Virus record (IMG/VR): IMGVR_UViG_3300037067_004979
Span: 10,733-74,732 of that record
Origin: a virus
Lineage: Duplodnaviria > Heunggongvirae > Uroviricota > Caudoviricetes
Length of the DNA: 64,000 bases
Direction: 5' to 3' (one strand)
Below the pieces are notes generated by a model. The model was not told the origin of the DNA, searched no databases, and was given only the letters and a program-made list of their open reading frames with translations. Positions 1,378 through 35,847 of this stretch are shown here, piece after piece. How positions within the stretch are numbered: the stretch's first letter is position 1; each line of letters opens with the position of its first letter. A program made the translations under genes and the position numbers.

Positions 1378-1704
1378 ATGTCTGAAGAAGAGATTGAATA
1401 TGAGGGAGAACCAGTAGATACCATCTTTGTCAGTTATGATGAGGACAACAAGGTCTTCTACATGGAGATCAATGATGATTATGGATTCATTCTTACTCCC
1501 CAGCAATCACTTGAGTTTGTTAATAAGTACATCAAGGTTATAGATGAGATAATAAAGGATGGGTTCAAGACTTCCATGAACTCATTTCTCAATGCACACA
1601 GACAGGCTGCAATGATTAAGATAGAGAGTGGTGATGAATCAAGAGCTGTTGAGGAGATAGAGAGAATGCTATCAGAAAATGACAATGGTACGATAGCGTC
1701 ATGA
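1378..1704 (+). CDS. small acidic protein
   Basis: ATG overlaps previous stop (TAAGATG); strongly acidic 108 aa. Confidence 0.5.
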   Translation: MSEEEIEYEGEPVDTIFVSYDEDNKVFYMEINDDYGFILTPQQSLEFVNKYIKVIDEIIKDGFKTSMNSFLNAHRQAAMIKIESGDESRAVEEIERMLSENDNGTIAS

Positions 1705-1715
1705 GGTGATTTACT

Positions 1716-4343
1716 ATGGGTAGAAGAGGACCACAACCTGGTGATATTGCTGGTAAGGTAAGGGTTATGGTACCAGCAGAAAAGAATGGTAAGAGATACT
1801 ATATACCTAGATATGTAACACAGGAAGCTGCATCAAAATACCAGCAATACACACCTGGTATGGAGGAGCAGGAACAATCCACAGGTAAAAAGAGACCAGA
1901 AAACTGGAAGGATCCAAGATTAAACCAGGTATATAATCTTCCACCAAATGATGAATCTAGATACCATTCTCACCAGGGATCACTAAAGTATCATCCTGTT
2001 CATCTCCCACATGACGATGATAATGTAAGCATAGAGCATCGTAATGAGAAGGATGCCTATGAAAATAGGTATTATGGCTCAAAGATGCAGAAACCTCTCT
2101 ATGAACAACTTGGTTTTGATCTTAATCGTAGTGTGCCAATAAACATGAGGGGATTGAGGCTAAAGGCAGATAAGTATGTGCATCCCAAGATAGGAAACTT
2201 CTATCTGTTTGATCACAAGGGATGGAGTTATGTTGTATCACCAGCCAACAAGATCACAAAACACTTCTATAATAAGTTAGATGGTGAGGATTTCATATTT
2301 AACTTGATAAGAGGGCCAAAGAAGTCATTTGAATCTAAATCACTCATACTAGATAAGATACAAAAGATGATACAGGCTTTCTCAAGTTATACATCTGGTA
2401 ACAATTCAGTCAGGATAGAGTATAATGGTAATGAATACTCTGTTTTGGTAAACAGCAACCCAATTATGCAGAGTGGTGATTTTGGATCAGCAATGTCAGA
2501 GTATTACAGACAGATAGGAGAGATAGTTAGACTGCAGGAGAGTGATCCAGACATCTCACTTAATATATTTGGGGATCAGGTTGTTAGAACAAACAGAGAG
2601 GCCATTGACAAGCTATCAATGATGGGTAAATCCATGGAAGCTGGGATGCTTAAGAATTTTGATTACTCTAATGTCAAGCTACCATTTGAGGATATCATTT
2701 TTAAGTATGAATCCCCCAGTAATCAGATAGGACAGGTACCAATACAGGAAGATATGGGGCAGGCTGCTGCAGAGACTGGTAATAAGCCTCGTAGATTAGA
2801 TGAAAACAGGGAGAGAAAACAGATTGGTTCTAATACATTTGAACTAAAGTCTATAGATAAGGATAGAGCTCAACGTATAGGTAGGAGCATTGGGATTGAT
2901 TTTGATAAGTATAATCTAGATCAATTCACAAGGGGCATAAATGTAGAGAGAGAACACGGTTCTAGGGATCCAGAAACCGATGTTATTGGTGATGACCCAT
3001 TTGCTGCCGGCAAGATTGCATGGGCACACCTAAAGGAAGTGCCAGACTACTACACCAAGTTAGAGATGGTGGAAAAGGAATTAAGAGATCTAGGCATGAG
3101 ACCCGCTCCAGAGGAAGCTCTACAAGATAGACACAGAGATGTTGATAGGCCGCATAAGGTAAGTCGTACCTTTCAACAGAGAAACTCTCCAAGTGAAGAG
3201 GTACCAATGGAGTTCAAGGATTTTCCGATGATGGCAGAGGGTGTACAAGCACATGAGAGTGTTAAGTTAGAGGGAACAGCTGATAAGATCGGTGGTAAAC
3301 CAAAACCAATAATTGGGAAGTCCTTTGGACCCATGATGGCAGTGGATAGAATTGGTGATAATCCCAAGCCAATAGATGGTAGAGACAGTGTTGGTAGCTT
3401 TTCTACAGAGCGTGATACCACATCTGAGCTAGAGAATCAAACTCAGGAGCAGCATGAGGTTGAGGAAAATAAGGAGCCATTCTATCACAAGAGATTTAAT
3501 ACTGATATGATCTATGACCAGTTAGAGGATATCCTTAAATCCCGCGGATTAATAGAGGGATCACAACCAATGGGTGTAAAGAGCATTGGTAATCAGGTAG
3601 AGCATGCAGTTTATCATGGCCTAAGAGATACTGTTAATGATTGGTTTTCTAGGATTGAACCCACCACACAACTTGATAAGGCTGTGCTGGATCTAAAGGC
3701 TGATCTTCTTAAGTGGGAGATTGGGGTGAGTAGAGATGTTGTAACAGATGTTAATGATATCTTTAATAAGGGTATTCAAGCTGGGATGGGAAATACAGGT
3801 ATTGCTGTTCCTGACAGATTAACTGGAATGTTTAACTATCAGATGTATAAACCAACTGGTATATCACCAGCTCTTGAGAATTTTCAAAACAGTGTCTTTG
3901 ACTCACTGTCTGGTATACTGAGAAAGCACTACGATAATGGCTTCCCAATTTACAGCACTAAGAGAGACATTGACTCATATCTCAGGAAAGCTAGATATAA
4001 CACCAGATTAATGATAAAGTCCGAGGTAGCCCAGATGGCCAACCTAGGCCAGATCATAGCATGGGAGCAGGATCCTGATAGGTACATGTATGAGTATTTC
4101 TGGAATGCAATTGATGATGATAGGATTAAGGTTATATCTAAGTCCAGACTGGATGGTAACCCATATGCATATCCTGAGATTCGTTTCCTCTGGGAAAACC
4201 AGATACAGATCATAGATGGTGTTGAGTACAATGACGTATTTAATCAGAGGTGTAGTATTTCCAGGGGTGATCTCCTTAGTAAAAGCTGGGATACAAATAG
4301 ATTTTCCTCTAGTGTGAATCTATTTAAGTCTACAATGATATGA
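1716..4343 (+). CDS. large virion-associated protein with MuF-like C-terminal region and N-terminal copy of the shared RYY module
   Basis: 875-aa ORF, RBS GAGGTGA; C-terminal YEYFWNAIDDDRIKVISKSRLDGNPYAYPE resembles phage Mu F/SPP1 gp7 head-morphogenesis signature (Y.W...D.R......LdG); N-term VRVMVPAEKNGKRYYIP similar to module in downstream paralogs. Confidence 0.55.
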   Translation: MGRRGPQPGDIAGKVRVMVPAEKNGKRYYIPRYVTQEAASKYQQYTPGMEEQEQSTGKKRPENWKDPRLNQVYNLPPNDESRYHSHQGSLKYHPVHLPHDDDNVSIEHRNEKDAYENRYYGSKMQKPLYEQLGFDLNRSVPINMRGLRLKADKYVHPKIGNFYLFDHKGWSYVVSPANKITKHFYNKLDGEDFIFNLIRGPKKSFESKSLILDKIQKMIQAFSSYTSGNNSVRIEYNGNEYSVLVNSNPIMQSGDFGSAMSEYYRQIGEIVRLQESDPDISLNIFGDQVVRTNREAIDKLSMMGKSMEAGMLKNFDYSNVKLPFEDIIFKYESPSNQIGQVPIQEDMGQAAAETGNKPRRLDENRERKQIGSNTFELKSIDKDRAQRIGRSIGIDFDKYNLDQFTRGINVEREHGSRDPETDVIGDDPFAAGKIAWAHLKEVPDYYTKLEMVEKELRDLGMRPAPEEALQDRHRDVDRPHKVSRTFQQRNSPSEEVPMEFKDFPMMAEGVQAHESVKLEGTADKIGGKPKPIIGKSFGPMMAVDRIGDNPKPIDGRDSVGSFSTERDTTSELENQTQEQHEVEENKEPFYHKRFNTDMIYDQLEDILKSRGLIEGSQPMGVKSIGNQVEHAVYHGLRDTVNDWFSRIEPTTQLDKAVLDLKADLLKWEIGVSRDVVTDVNDIFNKGIQAGMGNTGIAVPDRLTGMFNYQMYKPTGISPALENFQNSVFDSLSGILRKHYDNGFPIYSTKRDIDSYLRKARYNTRLMIKSEVAQMANLGQIIAWEQDPDRYMYEYFWNAIDDDRIKVISKSRLDGNPYAYPEIRFLWENQIQIIDGVEYNDVFNQRCSISRGDLLSKSWDTNRFSSSVNLFKSTMI

Positions 4344-7300
4344 ATGATATACTGTCTAGAATAGATGGTTTTCTTGTGAAGGCAAAGAAACATGGTGTAT
4401 CATATGCTGAGTATGTTAATAATACATCAATCAAGAGTGGGCATGATAAATTTAATGAGTATACCCCAAGTACACAGAGTAAAATCATTAAAAATCCTGC
4501 TGAGATATTAGATTATGATCTTGAGATTGGGGTAATTGATCAGGATGATTATGATAATATCATGGCATATCTTAAATCAATAAATAGTGAGCAGGCACCC
4601 CAACCACAGGGCCAAAAGGTATATCTCAAGCCTGGTGAGCACTCTCCTGAGGGTACCAGAGAGTATCAGGGCAAGCGTGGTGGGAGATACTACCTTGCTA
4701 CAGGCAAAACTGGATCAACTGGGGCAGAACAATATGACATTGATGCAGATTTAGATAGACAGATTAGGGAAGATCCTGTATTCTCTGATATGGTTAAGAC
4801 AGGTGGTGTGGGGGAATCAATCTATAGGGATATAGTTGGGTATCTTAAACTTGATAATAACCAACTGTTAGAGACATATCATCTTCGTGGTGATTCTGAT
4901 ATAAGTAATAAGATATTAAATGAGATAATAACTAGAAGAATTGCTAATGGTGATTTGAGTCTCAAGATTGATAAGACATATCTAATAGATTCTAGGCATG
5001 GCCTCATTGGGTATATATGGAGTGCCCCAAAAAACATAAAGATAGACTTTATCAAGAGTAACATAGATACTGATAATGTTAATATAGGTAGAGTTATACT
5101 GGATATTCTTGAAGATAACATAAATCTACCAGGTAGAGATAATCTATATCTTGATCTAGCACATGGATTGGGCTCTAAAAATTTAACTATAATGGAAAAC
5201 ATATTACATCATATCTCTAGTGACCATATCTCTGATAAGATCTTTATAAGAAGTAAATACCCAGAGGTGAGGAGTTTGGCCATGTCTAGAATATCAGATC
5301 CAGATTTAATCAGAAGAATGTTGAACAATGAGTTAGGTATGAGCCTTAAGAGTCCCTATATACTTGAACGAGGGTTATCTAGGGGTGATAAGGATCTGGT
5401 TACCAGCCCAAGATATCTTGAAGCCTGCGCTGCTGATGATAGGGTTAGTTTAGGACGTCTTCTTAATAGGAGTGGTGATCCTCTAACTATACCAGATATC
5501 TATGGTGTATATAAATCAGTACCAAGTGGTACGTTTATATCAATCATCTGGGGTTTAAATAGTGAAGAGGGCATACTTGATTTAATGAGATATAATGATC
5601 CTGTACTAAATAATTTGATTTTTAATAACAGAAATTTTGATAATCAATTCATATCCCAAATTATTGATAGTGATGATATAGATAAAACCAGTGACATGTG
5701 GCGTAACATACTATACGATACAGATAGTGAGGATATCATCAGTGGTAAGCTAGATGATCCTGACATTCAGACATCTCGTATAGCTCTATCTAGATTGATA
5801 GATCTTGGGGGTGTAAATCGTTTTGGTAATGATAACTGGGTGTTAACAGCATATAATCACACAAATGAGGATAATCTAGATTATGTTATATCTAAGAAAA
5901 GCCCAAAGTTAAGTAATCTCCTCTTTGATGAGATATTCATCAGTGATAAATTTAGTGTGGTTGATAAGGATGATGTGTTGGATTACTTTTCTAGATACAT
6001 ACCAGACGATGCCTTTGCAGAAAAGATAGTTGGGTACATGGATATCAATTCTGCTAAGGTAGAATCCATATTTTATGATTTTCCAGGACCAGACCTAGCT
6101 CTAAGGTTAAGAGATACAGAGAATGATGAATTGAGAAGAAAGATAGCTCTGTATCTAAGAGAAGAGGATATCAATGAATCTTATATGTTTGATAGCAATC
6201 TATATGTTAGAAGAGTAATTGCTGATAGATTAATGGATAAGGATAAGATACATCAGATGATAATTAATACTCCCTATGATTCATCTAATAATGAGGGTTC
6301 TCTCTATAATCGCATGATGGATAAATTACTGTGGAAAGCCTCCAGTGAGGATAAGATACATAAGTTTGATGAGTTATTGTCTAACTTTGCTAGGGATGAA
6401 CGTACATATATCTTAACATCAATACTAGCAGATGCTGAATATGATGTACTGTCACATGTTATAAATAACATTAATAACATACCAGATACACATCTTAGGG
6501 ATATCATGACAAACTGCTCTGCTGATGATATCATTAGACTATCTAAAATGGAGAGAATTCCTAAAGATAAAATTCTTACTACCAGATTAAAAAACATAGA
6601 GAATCTCGGTGGTGTTACTGCCATCAATAAATTTAGGGAAACTGGAGAGATTGATACCAATGCTATGAGGAAGGATTTTCTGGATAAGATAAGGAGAGTT
6701 GATGGGATTAATATTCAGGCTGAGGAAATTCATGATGATGATGAACCAGTTGGTCTAGATGAGTTTCTCCATCATCATAGAATTCATGCTGGGTTAAGAC
6801 AGGGATGGCTGTCTAGCTCAAATAGTAGTAAGTCTGCTCTGCTTAAGGAAGCTGCAAGAAGACTGTTTGGTGGGCACGTCTTTTATCATGATAATGCTAT
6901 TGCCAGTGATAAGAAGTGGGATGATGAGGTTACTCAATATAGTAAGGATAATAATATAGATATTGGAGAGGTTGAGAGTTATGTTAGAGATCTATATCAG
7001 ATGACCCAGCAATTACTATCTATTAGATTTCCTGGTAAGGAGGAGTTTACTCTCTGGAGGGGTTCATCTGAGGATGAGATTGCTGAGAAAACTGGAGAGC
7101 AAGATGAGTTTTACTTAACTCCTATTAAGATAAGGCAAAACTCTATCTCATCATGGACACTCAAGAAGAATGTTGCTGCATCATTTGGTAACACAATATT
7201 TGAGATCAAGGTACCCAAGAATGAGATCATAGCCAGCTATCTAATGTACTCATATTCTGGGTTTGAGGCCGAGATTCTTCTACATGGATCTGAGAATAGG

Positions 7301-7360
7301 GATGGATATATAGTACCAGCAAAGGGTATCTGGGAAGATATAACGATAAAGCATGGTTAA
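4340..7360 (+). CDS. polyvalent virion protein with C-terminal ADP-ribosyltransferase domain
   Basis: 1006 aa; KVYLKPGEHSPEGTREYQGKRGGRYYL module (nt 4616-4696); HEAT-like repeats (EVRSLAMSRISDPDLI, YVRRVIADRLMDKD); C-terminal LWRGSS ... SISSWT ... FEAEILL = R / S-x-S / E-x-E ART triad. Confidence 0.65.
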   Translation: MNDILSRIDGFLVKAKKHGVSYAEYVNNTSIKSGHDKFNEYTPSTQSKIIKNPAEILDYDLEIGVIDQDDYDNIMAYLKSINSEQAPQPQGQKVYLKPGEHSPEGTREYQGKRGGRYYLATGKTGSTGAEQYDIDADLDRQIREDPVFSDMVKTGGVGESIYRDIVGYLKLDNNQLLETYHLRGDSDISNKILNEIITRRIANGDLSLKIDKTYLIDSRHGLIGYIWSAPKNIKIDFIKSNIDTDNVNIGRVILDILEDNINLPGRDNLYLDLAHGLGSKNLTIMENILHHISSDHISDKIFIRSKYPEVRSLAMSRISDPDLIRRMLNNELGMSLKSPYILERGLSRGDKDLVTSPRYLEACAADDRVSLGRLLNRSGDPLTIPDIYGVYKSVPSGTFISIIWGLNSEEGILDLMRYNDPVLNNLIFNNRNFDNQFISQIIDSDDIDKTSDMWRNILYDTDSEDIISGKLDDPDIQTSRIALSRLIDLGGVNRFGNDNWVLTAYNHTNEDNLDYVISKKSPKLSNLLFDEIFISDKFSVVDKDDVLDYFSRYIPDDAFAEKIVGYMDINSAKVESIFYDFPGPDLALRLRDTENDELRRKIALYLREEDINESYMFDSNLYVRRVIADRLMDKDKIHQMIINTPYDSSNNEGSLYNRMMDKLLWKASSEDKIHKFDELLSNFARDERTYILTSILADAEYDVLSHVINNINNIPDTHLRDIMTNCSADDIIRLSKMERIPKDKILTTRLKNIENLGGVTAINKFRETGEIDTNAMRKDFLDKIRRVDGINIQAEEIHDDDEPVGLDEFLHHHRIHAGLRQGWLSSSNSSKSALLKEAARRLFGGHVFYHDNAIASDKKWDDEVTQYSKDNNIDIGEVESYVRDLYQMTQQLLSIRFPGKEEFTLWRGSSEDEIAEKTGEQDEFYLTPIKIRQNSISSWTLKKNVAASFGNTIFEIKVPKNEIIASYLMYSYSGFEAEILLHGSENRDGYIVPAKGIWEDITIKHG

Positions 7361-8549
7361 TACATATAACATAGATAACAACACAGATAACTCTGATTGG
7401 ATCCAGACAGTCAGGAGGTTAAATGAATTCAGTGATTTCAGAAAAACCTATCTGAGAACTGGCCAGAAACCTCCTAAGGGAAAGGAACTATATCAGGGGC
7501 CAAGAGGTGGGCACTTCTACCTTGCTAATGAGGATGATAAGTCTGAGGTTGAGTTCATGATTGATAATAATCTTATCTCTGAGTTAAGAGATAGTGTATT
7601 ATCCAACTGGTATCCAGTTATAAATAGGGTAGCATCATCTATACCAGATTGGATTACAAGAGATCTGAGAATACACATCAGTACCAATCTATATCTTGAA
7701 TCCAGGAAGATGTCAGAGGCAACAATTACTGGTAGGTATCTAGGGAAGGATGATATAATTATGATCAATCCACTCCTGCTTGTTATTAGTGATGAGGATG
7801 AATTGAGAATAAAGAGTGTTGATTATAATAATGAGATAAGATCCAGTGCATTTATATGTGTGTTAACTCATGAGCTTGGACACAGGGTAGAGAGAATACT
7901 ATACGATCACAGACCAAGATTGGTGTCTGATCTATTTGTTGAATATGAAAATACACCTGGTGCTGTTACTAGATATGGGAAAACCAATAAGAATGAGAGA
8001 TTTGCTGAGGCCTTCCTCTACTACAATCAGAATCCCAGAATTCTAGCAGGGAGAGACCCAACATCATATAAATTTATGAGGATGCACGTGTTTGATAACA
8101 GAGATATTGATAATCCAGTCTTAAAATCTGCTGATACTGGTGATATACCACTAGGGTCTGCCTGGATTGAGGATAGGGGGGCCTCCCTAAAATTCTTTGA
8201 GAAAGTCATTCGTGGAAAGAAGATTAGTGAATCTAAGAGAGATAAATCAAAGGATAATAAATCAGCTAATCCACCATTCATAACAATAGAGCCAGATCAG
8301 GGATTAATGCAGAAGTCTAAGATCTACTCTGAGATGGGTGAGGATAGCACAAAGACCACTGATGGCCCTAGAGGCCAACCACAGGAAGATCCACTTGAAA
8401 ATCCTGAGTATGGTTATGGTAATGCTGTTGGTAGCATGTCTATTGATAAGAGTGAGGGACTAGATTCTGTGAAGAAAAAAATAAGAGGGATAACACACGG
8501 TGATGCGGATGTTAAGAGTAAGCAAGACTATCCTTCAAGAGGAGAATAA
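7353..8549 (+). CDS. polyvalent protein with HExxH zinc-metallopeptidase motif
   Basis: KGKELYQGPRGGHFYLAN module near N-terminus; ICVLTHELGHRVE HExxH motif (nt ~7856-7894); start overlaps upstream stop. Confidence 0.6.
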   Translation: MVNTYNIDNNTDNSDWIQTVRRLNEFSDFRKTYLRTGQKPPKGKELYQGPRGGHFYLANEDDKSEVEFMIDNNLISELRDSVLSNWYPVINRVASSIPDWITRDLRIHISTNLYLESRKMSEATITGRYLGKDDIIMINPLLLVISDEDELRIKSVDYNNEIRSSAFICVLTHELGHRVERILYDHRPRLVSDLFVEYENTPGAVTRYGKTNKNERFAEAFLYYNQNPRILAGRDPTSYKFMRMHVFDNRDIDNPVLKSADTGDIPLGSAWIEDRGASLKFFEKVIRGKKISESKRDKSKDNKSANPPFITIEPDQGLMQKSKIYSEMGEDSTKTTDGPRGQPQEDPLENPEYGYGNAVGSMSIDKSEGLDSVKKKIRGITHGDADVKSKQDYPSRGE

Positions 8550-8970
8550 GAGGTGGGAATCCTATCAGATTGGTTCAAGAGTAAGCAAGAGAACCAAGTT
8601 ATTGATTGGTAACTCCCTCAGTATCATGGGATCCATCATAGGTAATGCAGATGATAATGTCAGAGCTGTTTATCATGGTGGTGAGTTACAGGGTGCTGTT
8701 GTCTATGGTGTTAGTAATGATGAGATGAGAGTTGCATTTATTGCTGTTGCCCCTTGGAATGTCTATGGTATGCCAGATAGACTGAGTGGGTGTGGGGCAT
8801 ACATGATGAGACATATTTTCAAAATAGTCAGCAGAGATGTTAAAATTAAGGGTGTATCACTGGTTGCCTTTGATGAGGCAGTCAATTTTTATAGGAAACT
8901 TGGATTTACTGAGAGAGGTGCATCAATGTTTATATCAAGAAGGAAGATCAATGGGAAACTGGGAAAATAG
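8500..8970 (+). CDS. GNAT family N-acetyltransferase
   Basis: VAFIAVAPW...RLSGCGAYMMRHI...FYRKLGF matches GNAT motifs A/B; overlaps both neighbours by short stretches (translational coupling). Confidence 0.55.
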   Translation: MMRMLRVSKTILQEENKRWESYQIGSRVSKRTKLLIGNSLSIMGSIIGNADDNVRAVYHGGELQGAVVYGVSNDEMRVAFIAVAPWNVYGMPDRLSGCGAYMMRHIFKIVSRDVKIKGVSLVAFDEAVNFYRKLGFTERGASMFISRRKINGKLGK

Positions 8971-10060
8971 AGCCAGAAAACTAGATTCTAGAAAGAAGCA
9001 GAGGGGATTTAAGACACACAATAAGGGTATGGCTAATCTACATGCTAATATTGCTAGTAAGAGATCCGCTGAGGCTGATGTGGTTCTTGATAAGATAAAT
9101 AGATTAACCAAGGGTAAGGTATACCTCTATGGTGATGAACACTCCCCTGAGAATACCCAGGAATTTAGAGGTCCTAAGGGTGCTAGATTCTACTACAGTG
9201 ATCAGTCAGGTGGTGGAGAAGTCCAACAATCACCAGACATATCCAGTTTAAATAGCAGAGAGATTGATGATAACACACTCCAAATTCTACAGAAGCAATC
9301 TGCTGTATGGAAGCAGTATGCAGAGAAATTTGGAGATGAGAACTCAGTTAATGCTGCATGGTTATTTGATGAGTTGGTTGGTGATATACAGGATTCTCAC
9401 ATACCACGTAGACTTAAATTTATATCATCTGACAGGGGCATTGAGAATGTTGCTGAGTTTAGGGATGTTAAGAAGAACAATGCCTACTACATTGATGTTC
9501 TAGCGTCTTCCCCACTAAATCAGGTTGGTTCAAGAGATAGAAGACCTGGTGGTGGTAATAAGCTACTCTATGATATATGCAGGGAAGCTGTTGATAATAA
9601 CAAGGATTACATCAAGTTAACCACTCTGGATGCTGCAAAACCATATTATCTCCAGAATGGATTTAGGGAATCCCAGACAGAGGGAGACATGATCTTATCA
9701 AGAGATGGTATTATGAGTTTTGTTAAGCAATATGAATCTAAACTTGGTAAGGCCATAGATATTGAGCCTGTCGCAATACCAGAGGGATCTAATATTAGAA
9801 AGGAGTTTGGTATGGCAGCTGATGTTAATACTCCCACATTTGGTGGTGGTTCAAGAAAAATCAGGGATAGAATCAAGATGATACTTGGGAAATCCCAAAA
9901 TCAAATAGATGACATACATGGGGAAGCTAAGCAGGTGGTACCTAAAACCCACATACAGAGAAGGGTTTTACATGAAGTAGAATATTTTGATGATGATAAT
10001 TTAAAAAAGAGTTTAATATTATATGAAGAAGGAGACAAATATTTTGTTGAAGTTATCTAA
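8951..10060 (+). CDS. polyvalent protein with RYY module and GNAT-like C-terminal domain
   Basis: Start placed at ATG 8951 (MGNWENRARK); track start 8837 would overlap the GNAT gene by 130 nt in another frame. KVYLYGDEHSPENTQEFRGPKGARFYY module (nt 9113-9196); YYIDVLAS...RDRRPGGGNKLLYDI...YYLQNGF GNAT-like. Confidence 0.5.
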   Translation: MGNWENRARKLDSRKKQRGFKTHNKGMANLHANIASKRSAEADVVLDKINRLTKGKVYLYGDEHSPENTQEFRGPKGARFYYSDQSGGGEVQQSPDISSLNSREIDDNTLQILQKQSAVWKQYAEKFGDENSVNAAWLFDELVGDIQDSHIPRRLKFISSDRGIENVAEFRDVKKNNAYYIDVLASSPLNQVGSRDRRPGGGNKLLYDICREAVDNNKDYIKLTTLDAAKPYYLQNGFRESQTEGDMILSRDGIMSFVKQYESKLGKAIDIEPVAIPEGSNIRKEFGMAADVNTPTFGGGSRKIRDRIKMILGKSQNQIDDIHGEAKQVVPKTHIQRRVLHEVEYFDDDNLKKSLILYEEGDKYFVEVI

Positions 10061-10796
10061 GAATTGTTTGAAATGTGGGAAAGAAATATTTGTAAAGCCT
10101 TCTATCTATAATAGAAAAAAATACTGTTCTAGAGAATGTAGAAAAACAGTAAAAATAGAACATGAATGTATAGGATGTCATGAGAAGTTTTATGTTTTTC
10201 CTAGTAGTAAAAAAATATATTGTTCACGTAAATGTCTAGATAAATATAGACCTAATGTTTGGCAGAAAAAATGGCCAAAAATATATGAATATGCTAATGT
10301 TAAATGTAATATGTGTGGGTCTCTAATGTATAGATCTTTAAAAAATAAAAATAATTATTATTGTTCTCAAAAGTGTTATCAAGAATATATAAAAAATAAT
10401 CCACATACTATCAGAATTGATCAAATTAACAACCAAGAGGTATTTTTACAAATTCTTTTAGAAATTATTTTGCCTACAGAATGGATATACGTTGGGAATA
10501 ACCAATTAAATATTTCTGGTAAAAATCCTGATTATGTACATAAAAGTGGTAATAAGTTAATAGAATATTATGGAAGATATTGGCATAGGAATGATAATCC
10601 AAATGAAAGAATTAAATTTTTTAGGGAAAGAGGCTATGAGTGTTTAGTAATATGGGAAGATGAATTATTTAAACAAGGCAAGACAAAATTATGCCCTAAG
10701 TGGTTAGAAACATTAGAAAAAATAGTGATATTTTCTGGTTATACAGGAGATAACTATGTAGGAGCTAGTAATGAGAAAAGAATTTGGGAATATTGA
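10023..10796 (+). CDS. free-standing homing-endonuclease-like protein (three zinc ribbons + Vsr/DUF559-like PD-(D/E)xK nuclease)
   Basis: Three C-x2-C...YCS(R/Q)xC(R/L/Y) zinc-ribbon repeats; C-terminal ISGKNPDYVHKSGNKLIEYYGRYWH...RERGYECLVIWEDE resembles Vsr/DUF559 fold and the intein endonuclease at 13563-14579; very AT-rich. Confidence 0.5.
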   Translation: MKKETNILLKLSKNCLKCGKEIFVKPSIYNRKKYCSRECRKTVKIEHECIGCHEKFYVFPSSKKIYCSRKCLDKYRPNVWQKKWPKIYEYANVKCNMCGSLMYRSLKNKNNYYCSQKCYQEYIKNNPHTIRIDQINNQEVFLQILLEIILPTEWIYVGNNQLNISGKNPDYVHKSGNKLIEYYGRYWHRNDNPNERIKFFRERGYECLVIWEDELFKQGKTKLCPKWLETLEKIVIFSGYTGDNYVGASNEKRIWEY

Positions 10797-11361
10797 TGAA
10801 GCCTCTAAATTTTTTAATAAAATGAAAATTAAATCTAAAATAAATTATATTTCTAAAGAATTGGATAGCTGTATTAATGAAGAGGGGATGATTCAAAAGT
10901 TCCTTAATGGTTATAAAAAGCTGGCTTTATTAAGTAAATCTTTTAACGGCCAAGAACTTAAAGATCTAGTAGATTTAGCTAAGTATGTTAATTCCATCAA
11001 GGGATTTAATCTATCTATGTCTGATAATCCAGATAGAATAGATAGGGTGTGTTACATAGATGCTGTTGCTCATAACCTGCACAAGCAGAAGCTGGTTGAT
11101 GGATCCTCAATATATAAGCAATTGGATGAGTTAGCATCAATCTCAAAATCAATTGGTGAGAGTAATAGGGAAGATAGGTTATTATTGTTGCAATCTCCAG
11201 TATATAATATTAATAAGATAAATAGTCTGGGAATAAGCATCCTCCAAAAATCATCTCTATCTCTTTGGGGGTTATATGAAAAAGCTATTAAGATTGGGGT
11301 GGAGAGATTATCAAATAGAGAACTGGTCTTACTCAGGGAATTCCTATGGAGTAAGATCTAG
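10771..11361 (+). CDS. hypothetical protein
   Basis: 196-aa ORF, no recognisable motif. Confidence 0.45.
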   Translation: MRKEFGNIDEASKFFNKMKIKSKINYISKELDSCINEEGMIQKFLNGYKKLALLSKSFNGQELKDLVDLAKYVNSIKGFNLSMSDNPDRIDRVCYIDAVAHNLHKQKLVDGSSIYKQLDELASISKSIGESNREDRLLLLQSPVYNINKINSLGISILQKSSLSLWGLYEKAIKIGVERLSNRELVLLREFLWSKI

Positions 11362-11372
11362 AGGAGGTAACT

Positions 11373-12557
11373 ATGGAAGACAAGAATCTATATAAGTCTA
11401 GGGATTATGATAAGGCTAATCAATTTGACAGGGTATTTCATAAGAGATATGAGTCTGGTTCATCCAAGATTGAGATTGGCCAGAGACCTGATAACATGGG
11501 TGTTGGTGGAAGAGCAATAGACATACTTCTTAATACCCCAATTTCTAAACTAGAATCAGTACTAAAGGCAGTTGGTGGTGTACCTGGTCAAAAGGCTGGT
11601 AGAAGAGTATATGTGGCACCAGGTGAAGCCCCACCCAAGGGTATTACTCTCTATAGAGGAAAGGAGGGTGGAAGATTCTATCTTGAAAACGAGTTTGAAC
11701 AGATGAAGGGATCACCATCTACCAGAGAAAACAAGCCTGATTATAAAAAAGAGCACTCATCTTTGTCTGATAGGGTCAAGTCTATTACTGAGAAGATGGA
11801 GAAGGAATACAACAATCTTGGTAATACTAAACCCAGAAATCCAGTAAATAGGTTTCAACCTGATCTACCACAAAATCAGGGTGTATTTAAGGGTAAGAAT
11901 CTAGCTACTGAGTATACACAAAAACCTGCTTCTCCAAAGTTTGAAGCTCCACAGGGTACTGTAAAGAACATCAAGCCCCCAAAGATTGAGAAGGAAGCTG
12001 GTCTTGGTGATGTTGGGTATAAGTCACCTGAGGTTGTATCTAAATCAATTAGTAGATTTCTGGCTAAACAGAATAATCCCTTTGCAATTGCTACTGCACA
12101 AGCTAAGAAGATGGGCTATCATAATTTTAAGGAGGGTACTCCTGGTGAGAAAAAGGTAGATGATATCTCTGAGGCTATCAAGGGCACAAAGAAGGTAGAG
12201 AAACAGAATCTTCCTAGCTTCAATCCAACTGGTAATCCAATGACTGGTATGGGTAACAAAGTAAAAGCTCAGGGCATAAAGAATAAACTTCTTGCTGGTC
12301 AAGGACAAGCTAAACTTGGTGCGGGTGGCAATATGCCGTCTAGTGCACAGAATGATATAGTAACTACAAATCAGCCACAAATACCTAAGACTATTGATCA
12401 AAGAAATCAAACCTTGTCAAGTAGGTCTGCTGGAATGTCTTCTCCAAAGATACAAGCTCCTGCAATGAGAAGTAGGGGTCCAAGAAATATACCATTTGCC
12501 CAATTTTCTTTGGCTGATAGAATAAATAAGTATATCCAGAAGAATGAAAAGAAATAG
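11373..12557 (+). CDS. Lys/Pro/Gly-rich protein carrying the RYY module (putative internal/ejection protein)
   Basis: RBS AGGAGGTAAC; RRVYVAPGEAPPKGITLYRGKEGGRFYLENE (nt 11601-11681); basic low-complexity C-terminal half. Confidence 0.5.
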   Translation: MEDKNLYKSRDYDKANQFDRVFHKRYESGSSKIEIGQRPDNMGVGGRAIDILLNTPISKLESVLKAVGGVPGQKAGRRVYVAPGEAPPKGITLYRGKEGGRFYLENEFEQMKGSPSTRENKPDYKKEHSSLSDRVKSITEKMEKEYNNLGNTKPRNPVNRFQPDLPQNQGVFKGKNLATEYTQKPASPKFEAPQGTVKNIKPPKIEKEAGLGDVGYKSPEVVSKSISRFLAKQNNPFAIATAQAKKMGYHNFKEGTPGEKKVDDISEAIKGTKKVEKQNLPSFNPTGNPMTGMGNKVKAQGIKNKLLAGQGQAKLGAGGNMPSSAQNDIVTTNQPQIPKTIDQRNQTLSSRSAGMSSPKIQAPAMRSRGPRNIPFAQFSLADRINKYIQKNEKK

Positions 12558-13058: not shown

Positions 13059-14651
13059 GTGAAAAAGATTCTAAATAGAGTAGAGCAAGAGATTGAGAAC
13101 AGAAATATAGGAGAGGATGAGTTATCTGATATACTATCCTCATTTGAGCCAGCAAAAAATAGACGAATAATTGCAGGGTATGCCTCAGTATCAATTGTTG
13201 ATAGAGAGGGGCATCGAATAAGTATTGCTGCTCTTAAGGATGCTGCCTCAAGATTTATGAAGAGTGGTTATCCCCTTCTAAATGTTTTTCACAGTGATAT
13301 ATCAGTTGGTAAGGTCTTGCCAAGATGGACTGATCCTGAAACAGGTAAGATCTGGGAATCAAGAGTTGATGATAAGGGTTGGTTTGTTGTCTGTGAACTA
13401 AGATCTGACATAGAGATAGCTGATAAGGTTTGGGAAGAGGTTGTTAAGGGTAATCTTAGATCATTCTCCATAGCTGGTTCATCTAAGGCTAAGCATCAGG
13501 CCTATGAGGGTGGCCAACAGTTTACATCAATTGATGAGCTGGATTTGGCAGAAATTACAATTTGTTTACCTGGTGATCAAAAAGTATGGACTAAGTCAGG
13601 TCTTAAAGATATTAAAGACATACAAATTGGTGAGGAAGTTATATCTCATAAAGCTAAATGGAGAAAAGTTACCAAAAAATTTGAAAGGCTAATATCTGAG
13701 AAAATAATTAAGATAACTACTTCAAAGGGATCAGTTATTATAACAAAGAATCATCCTGTCAGAACTTTAATTTATGGTGGACAAAATATTGGAACACATT
13801 ATGAATGGAAAGAAGCTGGTTTTCTTAATGAGGGAGATCTAATATCTTTATTATCATTTAGAGGTGTATGCCCAAGATGTGGTTCTCCGATTTTTATGAC
13901 TAAAGGAAATAGAAATAGAGATTATTGTTCTCTAAAATGTAGATATACTATTGGCAATAGAAGAGGCAAAACATATGCTTCTGGTGATAAAGGAGCTTTG
14001 AAACGTAAAAAGAAAATGGAAGAATTCTATTCTTTTGAAGAAAACAGAAAAAAGATGGGTGCTGGTGGTAGATCAACATGGAATATACGAAAAAATAACC
14101 CAGAAAAATTAAAAGAATGGTTTATGAGATTTAGATCTAAAGATAACTCTAATCATTTTGTGTCTGGAGAAAATCATAAAAAAACTAAACCAGAAAGAGA
14201 GCTAGAGATCATTCTTAAAGAGCTTGGCCTCAGTGAATGGAAGTTTACTGGTGATGGTTCTTATCCTATAGCAGGCAAGTTTCCTGATTTTTATGATGGT
14301 GATAAAAAGATAATCGAGGTATTTGGTGGATATTGGCATAAAAAGGAAGAAGAACAAGAAAGAATAGAACATTTCAGGAAACATGGTTATGATTGTATCA
14401 TTTTATGGGATCATCAATTTGGTGATAAGGCTAGCATTAGAGATACAGTTAGTCAATTTAGCAGAAATAAATTATATAAGATATTAAAGATAGAAGAAAT
14501 GGAATATTCTGGTCTTGTATATAATTTAGAGGTAGAAGAGGATAATTCATTCTGCACAAATATCTGTTTGGTACATAATTGTGAAACTCCAGTCAATCAG
14601 ATGAGTAAGTTTGACATACTATGGAATCCTGGAAGGGTGGATGTTTTTTGA
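13059..14651 (+). CDS. HK97-family prohead protease (S78/U35) interrupted by an intein
   Basis: GTG start behind AGAGGAG RBS; N-extein IIAGYASVSIVDREGHRI...PLLNVFHSD...RSFSIAGSS matches HK97 gp4-type protease (His, Ser); intein begins CLPGDQKVWT and ends LVHN|CETPV. Confidence 0.8.
   Translation: MKKILNRVEQEIENRNIGEDELSDILSSFEPAKNRRIIAGYASVSIVDREGHRISIAALKDAASRFMKSGYPLLNVFHSDISVGKVLPRWTDPETGKIWESRVDDKGWFVVCELRSDIEIADKVWEEVVKGNLRSFSIAGSSKAKHQAYEGGQQFTSIDELDLAEITICLPGDQKVWTKSGLKDIKDIQIGEEVISHKAKWRKVTKKFERLISEKIIKITTSKGSVIITKNHPVRTLIYGGQNIGTHYEWKEAGFLNEGDLISLLSFRGVCPRCGSPIFMTKGNRNRDYCSLKCRYTIGNRRGKTYASGDKGALKRKKKMEEFYSFEENRKKMGAGGRSTWNIRKNNPEKLKEWFMRFRSKDNSNHFVSGENHKKTKPERELEIILKELGLSEWKFTGDGSYPIAGKFPDFYDGDKKIIEVFGGYWHKKEEEQERIEHFRKHGYDCIILWDHQFGDKASIRDTVSQFSRNKLYKILKIEEMEYSGLVYNLEVEEDNSFCTNICLVHNCETPVNQMSKFDILWNPGRVDVF
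13563..14579 (+). mobile_element. intein (339 aa) with zinc ribbon and Vsr/DUF559-like homing endonuclease domain
   Basis: Block A CLPGDQKVW after extein AEITI; block G VHN followed by Cys; internal CPRCGSPIF...YCSLKCR zinc ribbon and GDGSYPIAGKFPDFYDGDKKIIEVFGGYWH...HGYDCIILWDHQF nuclease paralogous to ORF 10023. Confidence 0.65.
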
Positions 14652-14720: not shown

Positions 14721-14730
14721 ATTTTTATTG

Positions 14731-14748
14731 ATGTTTTTTGGTATAATG
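14731..14748 (+). promoter_or_regulatory. conserved promoter motif GATGTTTTTTGGTATAAT
   Basis: Immediately after terminator; drives small-protein cluster. Confidence 0.55.
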
Positions 14749-14844
14749 TGTATATGCCAACTATTGAAATTGAGTTTAATGTTGTGGTGGGGGGTAATAA
14801 GATATAACCTTAACCATAACACTGTTGAGGATAGGGGAAAGTGT

Positions 14845-15027
14845 ATGGCTTGTGGGTATATTTTCCCTAATTACAAGCACTATATGGTAATATGTGATAA
14901 CTGTTTTGATGTGTGGAGTAATAATAGGTTATCCAAGGGGAGAGATCACTTCTTTAGAAATTTTAGGAGAATACCAACCATTGAGGAATACAAGAGATAC
15001 CGATTGCTTGATAGTTTAAGAGGATGA
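14845..15027 (+). CDS. small zinc-ribbon protein (MML-tail family)
   Basis: Start moved to ATG 14845 after AGGGGAAAG; CxxC...CDNCF; C-term EEYKRYRLLDSLRG. Confidence 0.45.
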   Translation: MACGYIFPNYKHYMVICDNCFDVWSNNRLSKGRDHFFRNFRRIPTIEEYKRYRLLDSLRG

Positions 15028-15275
15028 CTAAATTAGATAGAGTGTTATTTGCCTACTACAGGTATCACACAAACAGTCACAGAGAAACTGGTATGTGTAT
15101 ATGCTGTGATGCAAGGTGTAAGAATAACAACATCATGTTTTGTGAGAGTTGTCTCAATATCTATCTAACATTCAGGCAATCACTCAAAAAAAGTGAGCTA
15201 TATACCTTAGCTAAAGCCAGCAGTGATTTTGCTGACTTCAAGTATAAGCTAATGATGCTGAGGTTAAAAGCATAA
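15024..15275 (+). CDS. small zinc-ribbon protein (MML-tail family)
   Basis: CICCDARC...MFCESCL; C-term KLMMLRLKA. Confidence 0.5.
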   Translation: MTKLDRVLFAYYRYHTNSHRETGMCICCDARCKNNNIMFCESCLNIYLTFRQSLKKSELYTLAKASSDFADFKYKLMMLRLKA

Positions 15276-15529
15276 TGGATATTGATATTGCTAGATTAGC
15301 TAGAGCTGTATATTATCATTATAATCAAACATCATATGAAAAGATCAAAGAGTGCGTTGTTTGTGGTAAGGATGTAGCTTCTAATATGATCTTTTGTTCA
15401 GAACATGATAAACAGTGGGAGGATTTTAAGCATTATTCTCTTGGTTTGGAAGATACCTATGCTATGTTAGCTTCATCAGAATCTGAGGATGAGTATATTA
15501 GAAACCTAATGATGAGGGTAATGAGATGA
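15275..15529 (+). CDS. small zinc-ribbon protein (MML-tail family)
   Basis: CVVCGKDV...FCSEHD; C-term IRNLMMRVMR. Confidence 0.5.
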   Translation: MDIDIARLARAVYYHYNQTSYEKIKECVVCGKDVASNMIFCSEHDKQWEDFKHYSLGLEDTYAMLASSESEDEYIRNLMMRVMR

Positions 15530-15601
15530 TAGAGGATTTATGTATCTGTATATTTTTGTTAGTGCCTTGTTTTATCATAGCATTTATATTTTTTTGGCAG
15601 G

Positions 15602-15796
15602 ATGATATATAGATCAATCCTGAGAATCAAGAGAATTCATGAGGTATATCTATTCAGTAGTAAGATACTAGAAGAGGATATTAATGAATATTGTCTCTTG
15701 CCACCATTTAGATATATGGTAGATAGACATGATATACCATTAGAGGATTTTGCTAAGACTGAGAGAATATTATACAGGATGAGAAATAGCATATGA
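15602..15796 (+). CDS. small hypothetical protein, paralog of 15812
   Basis: Shares LLPPFRYMVDRHDIPLEDFAKTERILYRMRNSI-type C-terminus with next ORF. Confidence 0.4.
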   Translation: MIYRSILRIKRIHEVYLFSSKILEEDINEYCLLPPFRYMVDRHDIPLEDFAKTERILYRMRNSI

Positions 15797-15811
15797 GGAT
15801 CTACTAATAAG

Positions 15812-16084
15812 ATGTTTAGTATATTTATTATGATTATTTTTTCTATCATGGTAATTTGTTCAATTCCTTTTATAGTGACTGGTTTTATCAAAATTCATGA
15901 GTGTAATAAGGACTTAAAGAGAAATGAAGAGGTATATGATTACAGAGTAAGGATGATAAAAAAAGATTATGAGGAGTTTCTTCTTCTGCCAAGTTATGAT
16001 AAGATGTTGGAGGATAGAGACACACCCGTAGATGGTTTTGCCATAAGGGAAAGAATGCTGCATAGGATGAGAAAGAGTGTATGA
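15812..16084 (+). CDS. small protein with N-terminal TM helix, paralog of 15602
   Basis: LLLPSYDKMLEDRDTPVDGFAIRERMLHRMRKSV parallels previous ORF. Confidence 0.4.
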   Translation: MFSIFIMIIFSIMVICSIPFIVTGFIKIHECNKDLKRNEEVYDYRVRMIKKDYEEFLLLPSYDKMLEDRDTPVDGFAIRERMLHRMRKSV

Positions 16085-16368
16085 GTATCTGTGAAGATAT
16101 CCACTGCCCAGCCTGTTATTCAGTGAGTGGAGACCATGCAACTTATGAAATAGTACCAAAGTATACCTGTGGGACAATCTGGTGTGTGGGTGAGTGTATT
16201 ACTGGTGAGGCTGGTAACAGACTACAGTGCTGTTATCTATGTAGAAAGAGAGGCAGGTGTGATGAGTATGCACTGGTATATAAGGGTAGTGGACTAGAGG
16301 GTATCATGAGAACAAGAGCTATCAGAAAACACATAAGGAGATACTATAGAGATAATGAGTATATGTGA
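16081..16368 (+). CDS. Cys-rich small protein (CC-x-L-C subfamily)
   Basis: CPACYS...CGTIWCVGEC...CCYLCRKRGRC. Confidence 0.5.
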   Translation: MSICEDIHCPACYSVSGDHATYEIVPKYTCGTIWCVGECITGEAGNRLQCCYLCRKRGRCDEYALVYKGSGLEGIMRTRAIRKHIRRYYRDNEYM

Positions 16369-16621
16369 TGATATTAGGTGTCCCTGTGGTTATGATGTGC
16401 ATGGTATCTCTAGGTATGATCTTCACCCAAAATATGTAGATGATACATTACGATGTGATGAGTCTTGCCCCGATTCAAAGGATCATTTGTATGCATGCTG
16501 TTATCTATGTGATAGCAGAGATAAATGCAGTGTATTTACAGCTACCTTTGGTGGTCTTGAGGGTATAATAAGAGAAAAAAAGATCCGAGATCATCTGAAG
16601 GAACACTATGGTAAGTCCTGA
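16355..16621 (+). CDS. Cys-rich small protein (CC-x-L-C subfamily), tandem paralog
   Basis: MSICDDIRCPCGY...CCYLCDSRDKC; same N-terminus MSIC(E/D)DI as previous. Confidence 0.5.
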   Translation: MSICDDIRCPCGYDVHGISRYDLHPKYVDDTLRCDESCPDSKDHLYACCYLCDSRDKCSVFTATFGGLEGIIREKKIRDHLKEHYGKS

Positions 16622-16694
16622 GTATAGCTCAGTCTGGTAGAGCACTTGGCCTGGGACCAAGGGGTCGTTGGTTCGAATCCAACTACTCAGACCA
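16618..16694 (+). tRNA. tRNA-Pro (anticodon UGG), CCA encoded
   Basis: Cloverleaf read by hand: acceptor CTGAGTA/TACTCAG, D-arm GCTC-AGTCTGGTA-GAGC, anticodon arm CTTGG-CCTGGGA-CCAAG, T-arm GTTGG-TTCGAAT-CCAAC, ACCA 3' end. Confidence 0.75.
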
Positions 16695-16721
16695 AATAGA
16701 TGTTTGTTGTATAATGTAATT

Positions 16722-16982
16722 ATGCCAATAATAAAATTCTTTAGTAGTGATCTAGGATGCAGGATGGAGGATAATTCATCCTGTGAGTATAACACTGACA
16801 CTGGTGAGCTCATCTGTGCTGAGGAGTGTGATAGAATAACTGATAGTGATAACAATCACATCTGTTGTTTATTTTGTGGTAAATTTCCCTGTAAGGGATG
16901 GGATGAACCACTTGGAGCTATTATGATTAAGAACAATGCAATGAAGAAGATAGGTTATTGCATTGAGGAGAAACAACAGTGA
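16722..16982 (+). CDS. Cys-rich small protein
   Basis: Start trimmed to ATG 16722 to avoid tRNA; CEYNTDTGELICAEEC...CCLFCGKFPC. Confidence 0.4.
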   Translation: MPIIKFFSSDLGCRMEDNSSCEYNTDTGELICAEECDRITDSDNNHICCLFCGKFPCKGWDEPLGAIMIKNNAMKKIGYCIEEKQQ

Positions 16983-17278
16983 GTTGTGAGATCTGTGGTA
17001 GTCCTGATAAATTTAAGATCTGTTCATTTACCAGTGGAATCCGTTCAAATAGTTTGTATCATATCTTAGATCTGAAATCAGTAAATAACATGAATAGTGA
17101 GATTACTATACACCACAAGTTTTGCTCAGAACATCTAATTGAATTTTATCGTATGGAACTCATATTAAATGGGTTAAGAGATAATAACCTCCCTGTTGTG
17201 GGTGGTTGTAGGAGATGTAAGGATATACTAAAAAATTTATTTTCTGAGAGGGGACATGATATTACCAATCTACTCTGA
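16979..17278 (+). CDS. small zinc-ribbon protein
   Basis: CEICGSPDKFKIC...CSEH...CRRCKD. Confidence 0.45.
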   Translation: MSCEICGSPDKFKICSFTSGIRSNSLYHILDLKSVNNMNSEITIHHKFCSEHLIEFYRMELILNGLRDNNLPVVGGCRRCKDILKNLFSERGHDITNLL

Positions 17279-34473: not shown

Positions 34474-35847
34474 GTGGCAGATATTTCATTAGGTGAATAT
34501 TTAGCGCAAGCACAGAGATCCATGGGTGGAGGCCAATTCGGAAGAGTTAGTGGTCCTCTTAGTGGATATCTCTTTGGTCCGGATTTTTTTAGGAAACAGA
34601 CCTATCTTCAGGTAGCGGATACATTTACTGCTACATATGGTAAAAAGGTTTGGGATGCCCTAAATAACAAAACTGTAACATTCAATGCAATTAAAAAAGT
34701 TGATTGGGGTCCTACGGTTGGTTGGCGTCTTAGGACAGATCGTGGTAAGACTGGTGCTTCTTCTGAAACCATAACAAAGCGTTCTCGTCCTGTTACAGAG
34801 ACAGGGTCTCTTCCAACTATAGATGTATCAAATTATGTTGGTGTCTATAGCTATCCAAAGAACATAGTGTCTACCTTTGGTGTGAGCTTGAAATCTCAGG
34901 CTGTGTCAGCACTTGAAGGCGGCATTGGGAACCAATTTGCTGTGGAGCAGGAGGGTGCATCTCGTGACCACATCAAAGAAATAAACCAGGAAATAATGGC
35001 TTCTGGTGGATATCTGATGTCTGGTGGAAGTTCTGATTATGGTATAGTTGGTACTGCTACTGCTACCTTTGCTCTGGCTGATCACTTTAAGATCGGTGAT
35101 GGAGTGGCAAAATCTGGTACTGATACATCCAGGACAGTTACATATGTTACCACAGCTGATGGACATGTAAATGCAACATCTCTCAGTGGTGCAGATGGTT
35201 ATACTGTTTATGTAAAATCAAGGGCTGGTCTTACTAGCATTGATGATATCGTAGCAGATGATTCTCAGAAGATTGGCAATGTAACAACCCCCATAGATGT
35301 ATATAATCTTACCACAAGAACAGCTGGTGGGTATGCTGCTGCAGCCTACTGCAGTGATAATGCAGGTTCTGGCAGAGATCTTACTCTAAAGTTAGTTGAT
35401 CAGTGCTTTGAGAATATACGTCAGAATGGTGGTGAACCAAAACTTATCATAACTGGTCTTGATCAGTATGATAACTTTAACCAGCTTTTACAGGCTCAAC
35501 AGAGATTTGTAGATGTGACTGATTACATTGTTGGTGCTGGGGATGAGAGGACCTACCCTGGAACAAGAGCAGGCTTCCAGCTTGCTACCTACAGGGGTGT
35601 TCCCATTCTTCCTGATCCTGATACTCCAAAATCAATGAGTTCAGCAGATGCCTTACTTGGTAGTAATTTATATGTACTGGATACTGATTATCTGGAAACT
35701 GCTGTCATGTATCCTACTCAGTACATTGAAAATAGAGACTACTTTGCGGCAAATGCTCTTGTGATAAGAGGCATGTTTATCACAATGGCAGAAACCAGGG
35801 CTCTTAGGTTTGATGTACATGCAAAGCTGTCTGACTTAAATACATAA
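34474..35847 (+). CDS. putative major capsid protein
   Basis: 457 aa after scaffold-like gene, RBS AGGAGGTGAG, followed by strong terminator; family not provable by eye. Confidence 0.5.
   Translation: MADISLGEYLAQAQRSMGGGQFGRVSGPLSGYLFGPDFFRKQTYLQVADTFTATYGKKVWDALNNKTVTFNAIKKVDWGPTVGWRLRTDRGKTGASSETITKRSRPVTETGSLPTIDVSNYVGVYSYPKNIVSTFGVSLKSQAVSALEGGIGNQFAVEQEGASRDHIKEINQEIMASGGYLMSGGSSDYGIVGTATATFALADHFKIGDGVAKSGTDTSRTVTYVTTADGHVNATSLSGADGYTVYVKSRAGLTSIDDIVADDSQKIGNVTTPIDVYNLTTRTAGGYAAAAYCSDNAGSGRDLTLKLVDQCFENIRQNGGEPKLIITGLDQYDNFNQLLQAQQRFVDVTDYIVGAGDERTYPGTRAGFQLATYRGVPILPDPDTPKSMSSADALLGSNLYVLDTDYLETAVMYPTQYIENRDYFAANALVIRGMFITMAETRALRFDVHAKLSDLNT

Follow-up and report, generated by a model that had tools for sequence, protein, structure and literature searches.

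What is the 339-amino-acid (aa) element that interrupts a prohead (head-maturation) protease gene in the genome of a tailed virus, and how is the nuclease within it related to a second nuclease encoded about 3 kb upstream? Both lie in IMG/VR record IMGVR_UViG_3300037067_004979 (Caudoviricetes), positions 10,733 to 74,732; this whole stretch of 64,000 nucleotides (nt) is called the window, and all coordinates refer to it. Our analysis indicates that the element (13563-14579) is very probably a mobile class-1 intein with an EDxHD/Vsr-like homing endonuclease, inserted in the protease of a tailed virus, and that the upstream open reading frame (ORF 10023-10796) arrived independently. The protease gene and the domains of the element are arranged as follows:

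13059-14651, + strand: prohead protease precursor ORF, 530 aa, 61.2 kDa (ORF list, PHROG, tblastn, computed mass)
13059-13562, + strand: N-extein, aa 1-168, ending …LAEITI and holding His78 and Ser137 (alignment columns)
13563-14579, + strand: putative class-1 intein, 339 aa (1017 bp), 39.6 kDa, running from Cys1 to His338-Asn339 and followed by Cys+1; absent from the protease homologues P0015, P0018 and P0020
13563-13853, + strand: N-terminal part of the Hint domain, intein aa 1-97, blocks A and B (Cys1, Thr61-x-x-His64)
13854-13952, + strand: zinc ribbon, Cys103/Cys106/Cys122/Cys126, motif at nt 13869-13940 (regular expression, conservation, weak Pfam zinc-ribbon matches)
13953-14174, + strand: basic helical linker, aa 131-204 (low model confidence, variable in length among homologues)
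14175-14462, + strand: EDxHD/Vsr-like nuclease domain, aa 205-300 (Glu211, Asp242, Glu252, His259, Glu264/266)
14463-14579, + strand: C-terminal part of the Hint domain, aa 301-339, blocks F and G (Asp327, His338, Asn339), with invariant columns and a predicted local distance difference test score (pLDDT) of 93-98
14580-14651, + strand: C-extein, 23 aa, CETPVNQMSKF…, whose first residue is the predicted nucleophile Cys+1; aligns with the C-termini of intein-less alleles

The host gene is an HK97-type protease, as an earlier note on this DNA had proposed. The N-extein matches the PHROG head maturation protease (E 2.5e-11), and the exteins ligated in silico form a protein of 191 aa (calculated mass 21.6 kDa) that scores 33.8 bits against the Pfam model Peptidase_S78 (PF04586; cut-off 21) over aa 100-180, a match that crosses the junction at 168/169; the unspliced precursor gives only a sub-threshold match to S78_2. 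This match emerges upon removal of the 339 aa, which are therefore not a native domain. His78 and Ser137 are invariant across 13 aligned protease sequences and are probably catalytic, by likeness to the His/Ser dyad of HK97 gp4. In a tblastn search of a phage collection, the prohead proteases of the haloarchaeal viruses HVTV-1 and HCTV-5 matched the N-extein only (30-32% identity), and no cultured relative with the intein was found. The peptide expected across the junction of the ligated protease is …LAEITICETPVNQ….

The element itself has the sequence features of a class-1 intein. It was said to break the protease after AEITI with canonical junctions, and its coordinates agree with that description to the base: the first residue of CLPGDQKVW is precursor aa 169 (nt 13563) and the last of VHN is aa 507 (nt 14579), within a conserved C-terminal strand of the protease (E-I-T-I/C-E-T-P-V-N, the slash marking the insertion site). 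The class-1 set of splicing residues is complete (C1, T61, H64, D327, H338, N339, and Cys+1); among 11 homologues that are 35-52% identical, there is no variation at Cys1, Thr61, His64, Asp327, or Asn339, and conservation of His338 is 90% or more. A Hint fold is modelled, and the family score is above threshold, if barely so (Pfam Intein_splicing, 36.1 versus a cut-off of 35.8). A profile search of the six-frame translation found only this one Hint domain in the window. Intein-less alleles, whose comparison the earlier note had recommended, close up precisely: P0015, P0018, and P0020, with a protease part 54-74% identical, lack the 339 aa and read …LDLAEVTI/CEQGINQMSKF… at the site (…AEVTI/CEQGINQ… at the junction). 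The view that the 339 aa are native and carry no conserved splicing motifs, which that note had named as the refutation of its proposal, fails on both counts, with orthologues lacking the segment and the splicing residues invariant.

Inteins have usually been described with LAGLIDADG or HNH endonucleases. The module nested in this one is instead composed of a zinc ribbon, a linker, and a nuclease, and every motif that had been quoted for it was located (CPRCG…YCSLKC at intein aa 103-126, then GKFPDF, IEVFGGYWH, and HGYDCIILWD). Cys103, Cys106, and Cys122 are invariant among the intein homologues and Cys126 is at least 90% conserved; the ribbon is presumed to be a DNA-binding element. The linker is poorly modelled (pLDDT 32-52 over aa 155-203) and differs in length by about 90 aa over P0002-P0006; NUMOD3 matches occur in the linker region of the family relatives P0025, P0047, and P0064. 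Neither window protein has a NUMOD match in Pfam, and the order of domains is as in I-Bth0305I, with the module here consisting of zinc ribbon and basic linker.

The nuclease domain is a compact α/β unit (pLDDT 74-93) with the Vsr-like nuclease core fold. A comparison of folds was required because Pfam scans gave only sub-threshold nuclease scores, and for the same reason the domain is placed in the EDxHD/Vsr-like fold class and not in the DUF559 Pfam family; the Vsr/DUF559-like endonuclease of the earlier note is upheld in this form, by fold and by motif. The DUF559 cut-off is passed inside related inteins (P0112, 72.2 bits; P0051, 27.9; P0061, 23.9). The catalytic residues of I-Bth0305I are E170, D196, N208, H213, and D222 (PMC3239194); in a phmmer alignment to its structure (3r3p) they stand opposite E211, D242, F254, H259, and E264 of the intein. 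The corresponding motif residues of ORF 10023-10796 are E139, D170, H188, and E195, so that both nucleases carry the composite EDxHD motif with a conservative change from Asp to Glu at the final position. In the 11 homologues, conservation reaches at least 90% at E211, D242, E252, H259, and R267; E252 is an additional, family-specific Glu at the position of Vsr Phe62 to which Dassa et al. drew attention. The intein nuclease looks catalytically competent from these residues.

The distribution of the intein is that of a mobile element. In a database search, some ten proteases (P0002-P0006, P0008, and P0012-P0014; 37-48% identity) proved to have this intein at an identical position. In one further homologue (P0007, 363 aa, on a 31-kb Logan contig) the intein at this site has lost linker and nuclease and is reduced to a mini-intein of 169 aa, with the Hint domain and zinc ribbon still in place; this is an apparent intermediate in the loss of the endonuclease. 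The base composition of the intein is foreign to its host gene, with a G+C (GC) content of 0.309 and a GC content at third codon positions (GC3) of 0.186, compared with 0.39 and 0.29-0.33 in the exteins. A second site for inteins in this protease family lies directly after an invariant His (VFH/S, in …NVFH/SD…), where P0015 (L001:3636-5111), P0018, and P0020 carry an HNH-containing intein; both sites are filled in P0012 and P0017. Judged by these alleles, the protease appears to be a two-site intein hot spot with two nuclease types.

Related modules are found well beyond this protease. The intein profile was searched against 1.84 billion cluster representatives and gave 19,774 matches at E<=1e-3 and 1,371 at E<=1e-30. 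Of the best 150, 126 are short stand-alone proteins, and at least 25 have the nuclease in frame between the N- and C-terminal parts of a Hint domain. The hosts of these in-frame inteins include fused prohead proteases, DnaE, GHMP kinases, a DegT aminotransferase, a Toprim primase, and a TMEM260-like protein; some carry the JGI pipeline label [quoted passage not shown]

The second nuclease lies within a gene upstream of the protease, whose parts are as follows:

8837-10060, + strand: upstream fragment of a split gene, 407 aa; homology stops at aa 389 (nt 10003)
10004-10875, + strand: low-GC endonuclease cassette, 872 bp, within a conserved head-module gene (alignment to the uninterrupted genes of L001 and L004; no Rfam intron)
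10023-10796, + strand: second EDxHD/Vsr-like homing-endonuclease gene (putative), 257 aa, three zinc ribbons followed by the nuclease (aa 133-226, nt 10419-10700)
10771-11361, + strand: downstream fragment of the split gene, 196 aa; strong homology from aa 36-37 (nt 10876)

The architecture that had been claimed for ORF 10023-10796 is present, with the same order of modules as in the intein: three CxxC…CxxxC ribbons (aa 15-39, 49-71, and 95-118) precede the nuclease motifs GKNPDY…IEYYGRYWH…RGYECLVIWED. The gene is not merely free-standing, as the earlier note had described it, but interrupts another that is contiguous in two relatives. In L001, the syntenic Logan contig that carries P0015, a single gene (L001:2-1402) spans both window fragments; aa 95-389 of ORF 8837-10060 are 42% identical to aa 1-305 of the L001 gene, and aa 10-196 of ORF 10771-11361 are 64% identical to its aa 279-466. 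In L004 (NCBI GCA_043956695.1) there is one uninterrupted gene of 564 aa (L004:4507-6201), to which the downstream fragment is 58% identical from aa 37. Homology is lost after …EVEYFDDDNL (nt 10003) and regained at NEEGMIQKFL (nt 10876). The intervening cassette supplies the upstream fragment with an 18-aa tail and a stop codon (10058-10060), and the downstream fragment with an ATG (10771) and a 35-aa leader that begins in a 26-nt overlap with the endonuclease ORF. Contiguity in relatives and an insert-borne stop and start are the marks of an intein-less "fractured gene" (step Ia of Dassa et al. 2009). The GC content of the cassette is about 0.26, coinciding with the compositional trough, and that of ORF 10023-10796 is 0.262 against about 0.38 in the flanks. 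The split gene has no Pfam or PHROG match.

Two other accounts of the cassette were set aside. An intron origin for ORF 10023-10796 was rejected, since 9700-11200 gave no Rfam match at E<=1 and the 872-bp insert is nearly all ORF. A 27-aa duplication flanking the cassette (downstream aa 10-36 compared with L001) is not demonstrated; only about 7 of 27 positions are identical, and the alignment to L004 starts at aa 37.

The paralogy suggested for the two nucleases holds up. BLASTP aligns the intein with ORF 10023-10796 at 26% identity over 212 aa (E 4e-20), and a nuclease profile made from intein copies alone matches the ORF at E 3.9e-28; the likeness is far above chance by both sequence comparisons. 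The same profile found no further nuclease copies in the six-frame translation of the window. The ORF nuclease has no DUF559 or Vsr match in a domain-only Pfam scan, and in a full-length scan neither the unspliced precursor nor the ORF matched any nuclease family. The two copies, both within 4 kb in the morphogenesis module, are nevertheless not "the same homing endonuclease" in two forms, as had been stated. In a profile-guided alignment of 161 domains, the two cores share 35% identity, which puts them 143rd and 151st of 160 in each other's lists, while many foreign free-standing members share about 50% identity with either copy. Since the cores are only 35% identical and are not each other's closest relatives, separate acquisition is indicated; the two are distant paralogues that arrived independently. 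In view of the identity ranks, a recent duplication of the nuclease within the genome was rejected. Intein and cassette are also independently distributed among relatives: L004 combines the intein with an unbroken upstream gene, and L001 lacks both elements.

The mechanism proposed from these findings is as follows. Translation of 13059-14651 would yield a 61-kDa precursor, from which the Hint domain (aa 1-97 and 301-339) would excise itself by way of Cys1, Asn339, and Cys+1, giving a functional 21.6-kDa protease and a free 39.6-kDa intein. Zinc ribbon, linker, and Vsr-like nuclease, seated at the canonical endonuclease-insertion site of the Hint domain, would act as an EDxHD homing endonuclease; during co-infection the nuclease would cut intein-less protease alleles near the site, and recombinational repair would copy the intein in. 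ORF 10023-10796 is a distant member of the same family whose 872-bp cassette has split a head-module gene into two ORFs. The window juxtaposes steps Ia and IIa/IIIa of the gene-breaking model (Dassa et al. 2009; PMC2677866).

Several points weigh against this account. The intein nuclease remains below threshold in Pfam, both for DUF559 (PF04480, 19.0 versus 20.6) and for Vsr (PF03852, 16.5 versus 27). At the final motif position Glu replaces Asp, and Val or Ala occurs near it in some homologues, which makes it uncertain whether individual copies are active. The DNA-binding region consists of a zinc ribbon in place of the NUMOD-2 helix-turn-helix of I-Bth0305I, and confidence in the model of the linker is low. 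Around the site, the DNA of the closest intein-less allele found agrees at only 55 of 90 nt (about 61%), and a recent homing event is therefore not documented; splicing, cleavage, and homing are themselves inferred. Part of this would also suit an intein that still splices around an inactive or decaying nuclease, in a late "fixed" stage of vertical inheritance after homing has ended. The nuclease-deleted P0007 exists in the same lineage, the linker is very variable in length, a nearly identical intein-less allele was not found, and the fifth motif residue, Glu instead of Asp, is non-acidic in two homologues. Set against these, the conservation of E211, D242, E252, H259, and R267 at 90% or more among sequences 35-52% identical points to purifying selection on the nuclease, and the ORF is intact, with the nuclease confidently modelled; we regard decay as unlikely, though it deserves consideration.

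A native, non-splicing insertion domain that stays in the mature enzyme, for example as a DNA-binding or nuclease domain, would find some precedent in the long multidomain fusions of this protease family (P0008, P0014, P0051, and P0053), which evidently tolerates extra domains. Such a domain should hardly be missing with precision from orthologues, interrupt a conserved β-strand motif, combine a Hint fold with invariant splicing residues, or need removal before Peptidase_S78 is recognized, and this explanation is extremely improbable. It is also possible to see the nucleases mainly as weapons or drivers of recombination between co-infecting viruses, through the cutting of competitors and marker exclusion, with the head module marking boundaries of exchange. 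Both copies do lie within 4 kb of each other in a conserved morphogenesis module, the family is huge and mostly free-standing (the 1,371 representatives at E<=1e-30 and the 126 stand-alone members of the best 150 given above), and phage nuclease genes have been tied to exchange boundaries in the literature (PMC10448857). Such a role is compatible with homing and does not exclude it, and precise, site-specific insertion at one protease codon across many divergent alleles is the hallmark of homing; as the main function we consider it quite unlikely. The reading of the element as a mobile class-1 intein with its own homing endonuclease is retained.

The window belongs to a very divergent tailed-virus genome, and an identical endonuclease is present on a 106-kb JGI contig. 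An SU10_MCP-like major capsid protein is encoded at 34474-35847, with tail genes at 47-62 kb. Since the protease has its nearest cultured relatives in haloarchaeal viruses, the host may plausibly be an archaeon. About ten small ORFs of 64-104 aa follow one another in tandem directly 3′ of the protease gene (14728-17278), and many are rich in Cys, with CxxC pairs. Several of these ORFs are clear paralogues, for example 16081-16368 and 16355-16621, both beginning MSIC(E/D)DI(H/R)CP, and the same run is found in L001 and L004.

Three large ORFs within 1716-8549, upstream of the head genes, may encode effectors or toxins packaged in the virion. ORF 1716-4343 contains DUF5661, a domain that in P0051 and P0053, two fused homologues, is also located after the protease; ORF 4340-7360 carries at its C-terminus a DRAT-like ADP-ribosyltransferase domain (E 3.8e-16), and ORF 7353-8549 an anthrax-lethal-factor-like domain (E 1.1e-6). 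A motif VY(L/V)..GE..P.G….RG..GGRFY recurs in ORFs 7353-8549 (aa 18-84), 8837-10060 (aa 75-123), and 11373-12557 (aa 76-117), which are neighbours but not orthologous, and BLAST cross-matches place it also in the L001 genes 2-1402 and 1404-3113. It may be a common targeting or assembly signal of head-module proteins.

The mechanism is one that intein biology predicts, and the surprise is moderate; the value of the locus lies in documenting a predicted, widespread, and undescribed architecture. The in-frame case suggests that free-standing endonuclease genes of the EDxHD/Vsr-like family can turn into true intein domains, as modelled, and the profile search indicates that this conversion has taken place in many host proteins. 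The gp41-1 split intein is used in protein engineering; the protease intein is related to it, and the endonuclease could serve as a compact, zinc-ribbon-guided nuclease scaffold. The two-site protease and the split head-module gene also offer conserved DNA targets by which gene flow could be followed in tailed viruses that are uncultured and probably archaeal.

The novelty of the architecture depends on what is already known of the family. Vsr-like/EDxHD nucleases are on record between the halves of split inteins, within group I introns, and also as free-standing proteins (PMC2677866; PMC3239194), and actinophage inteins have antisense VSR-like endonucleases, an association previously reported only for split inteins, according to a preprint (bioRxiv 10.1101/2025.01.02.630785). 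In-frame integration was drawn by Dassa et al. 2009 as hypothetical steps IIa/IIIa (PMC2677866). No description of an in-frame Vsr-like/DUF559 intein, or of such an intein in a protease, was found in the searchable literature, which is incomplete and no proof of absence. The endonuclease family is already known and its in-frame fusion was predicted (Dassa et al. 2009; PMC2677866), so the undescribed part is the in-frame architecture itself. The chances seem about even that contiguous inteins whose EDxHD/Vsr-like endonuclease is in frame make up a widespread class, so far undescribed, beyond LAGLIDADG and HNH (in prohead proteases, DnaE, GHMP kinases, DegT aminotransferases, and Toprim primases), with the window holding one family in two states and supplying the "missing" Dassa steps IIa/IIIa.

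Among characterized systems, I-Bth0305I (PMC3239194; PDB 3r3p) is encoded by a group I intron and has two NUMOD-2 helix-turn-helix motifs, whereas the window nucleases, 20-25% identical to it, reside in an intein or in a gene-splitting cassette and follow one or three zinc ribbons. The Vsr mismatch endonuclease and DUF559 proteins (PDB 1cw0 and 3hrl) are matched only below threshold in Pfam, and E252 and the mobile context fit the homing-endonuclease lineage instead. Canonical LAGLIDADG and HNH inteins (PI-SceI, PI-PfuI, and phage HNH inteins) share the nesting position in the Hint domain, the splicing chemistry, and the presumed homing cycle; the nuclease here is a Vsr-like derivative of PD-(D/E)xK, not LAGLIDADG or ββα-metal.

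The actinobacteriophage inteins (bioRxiv 10.1101/2025.01.02.630785) are likewise full-length, occur in phage structural and replication genes, and are associated with a Vsr-like/EDxHD nuclease, for which an origin from free-standing endonuclease genes is also proposed; their nuclease is encoded by the opposite strand and lies outside the intein polypeptide, whereas here it is an in-frame domain of the intein. The fractured genes of Dassa et al. 2009 (PMC2677866) involve the same endonuclease family, with Vsr-like genes between split-intein halves; the split intein gp41-1 from that study is the closest in sequence to the Hint part of the window intein. They include an intein-less fractured gene, SbcD-like, for which the invading element was proposed to bring both stop and start; the cassette at 10004-10875 repeats this case, with an insert-borne stop and an ATG that overlaps the 3′ end of the endonuclease gene. 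The protease intein differs from the cases reported there in being contiguous with its nuclease in frame, a state not reported in that study for the Vsr-like family.

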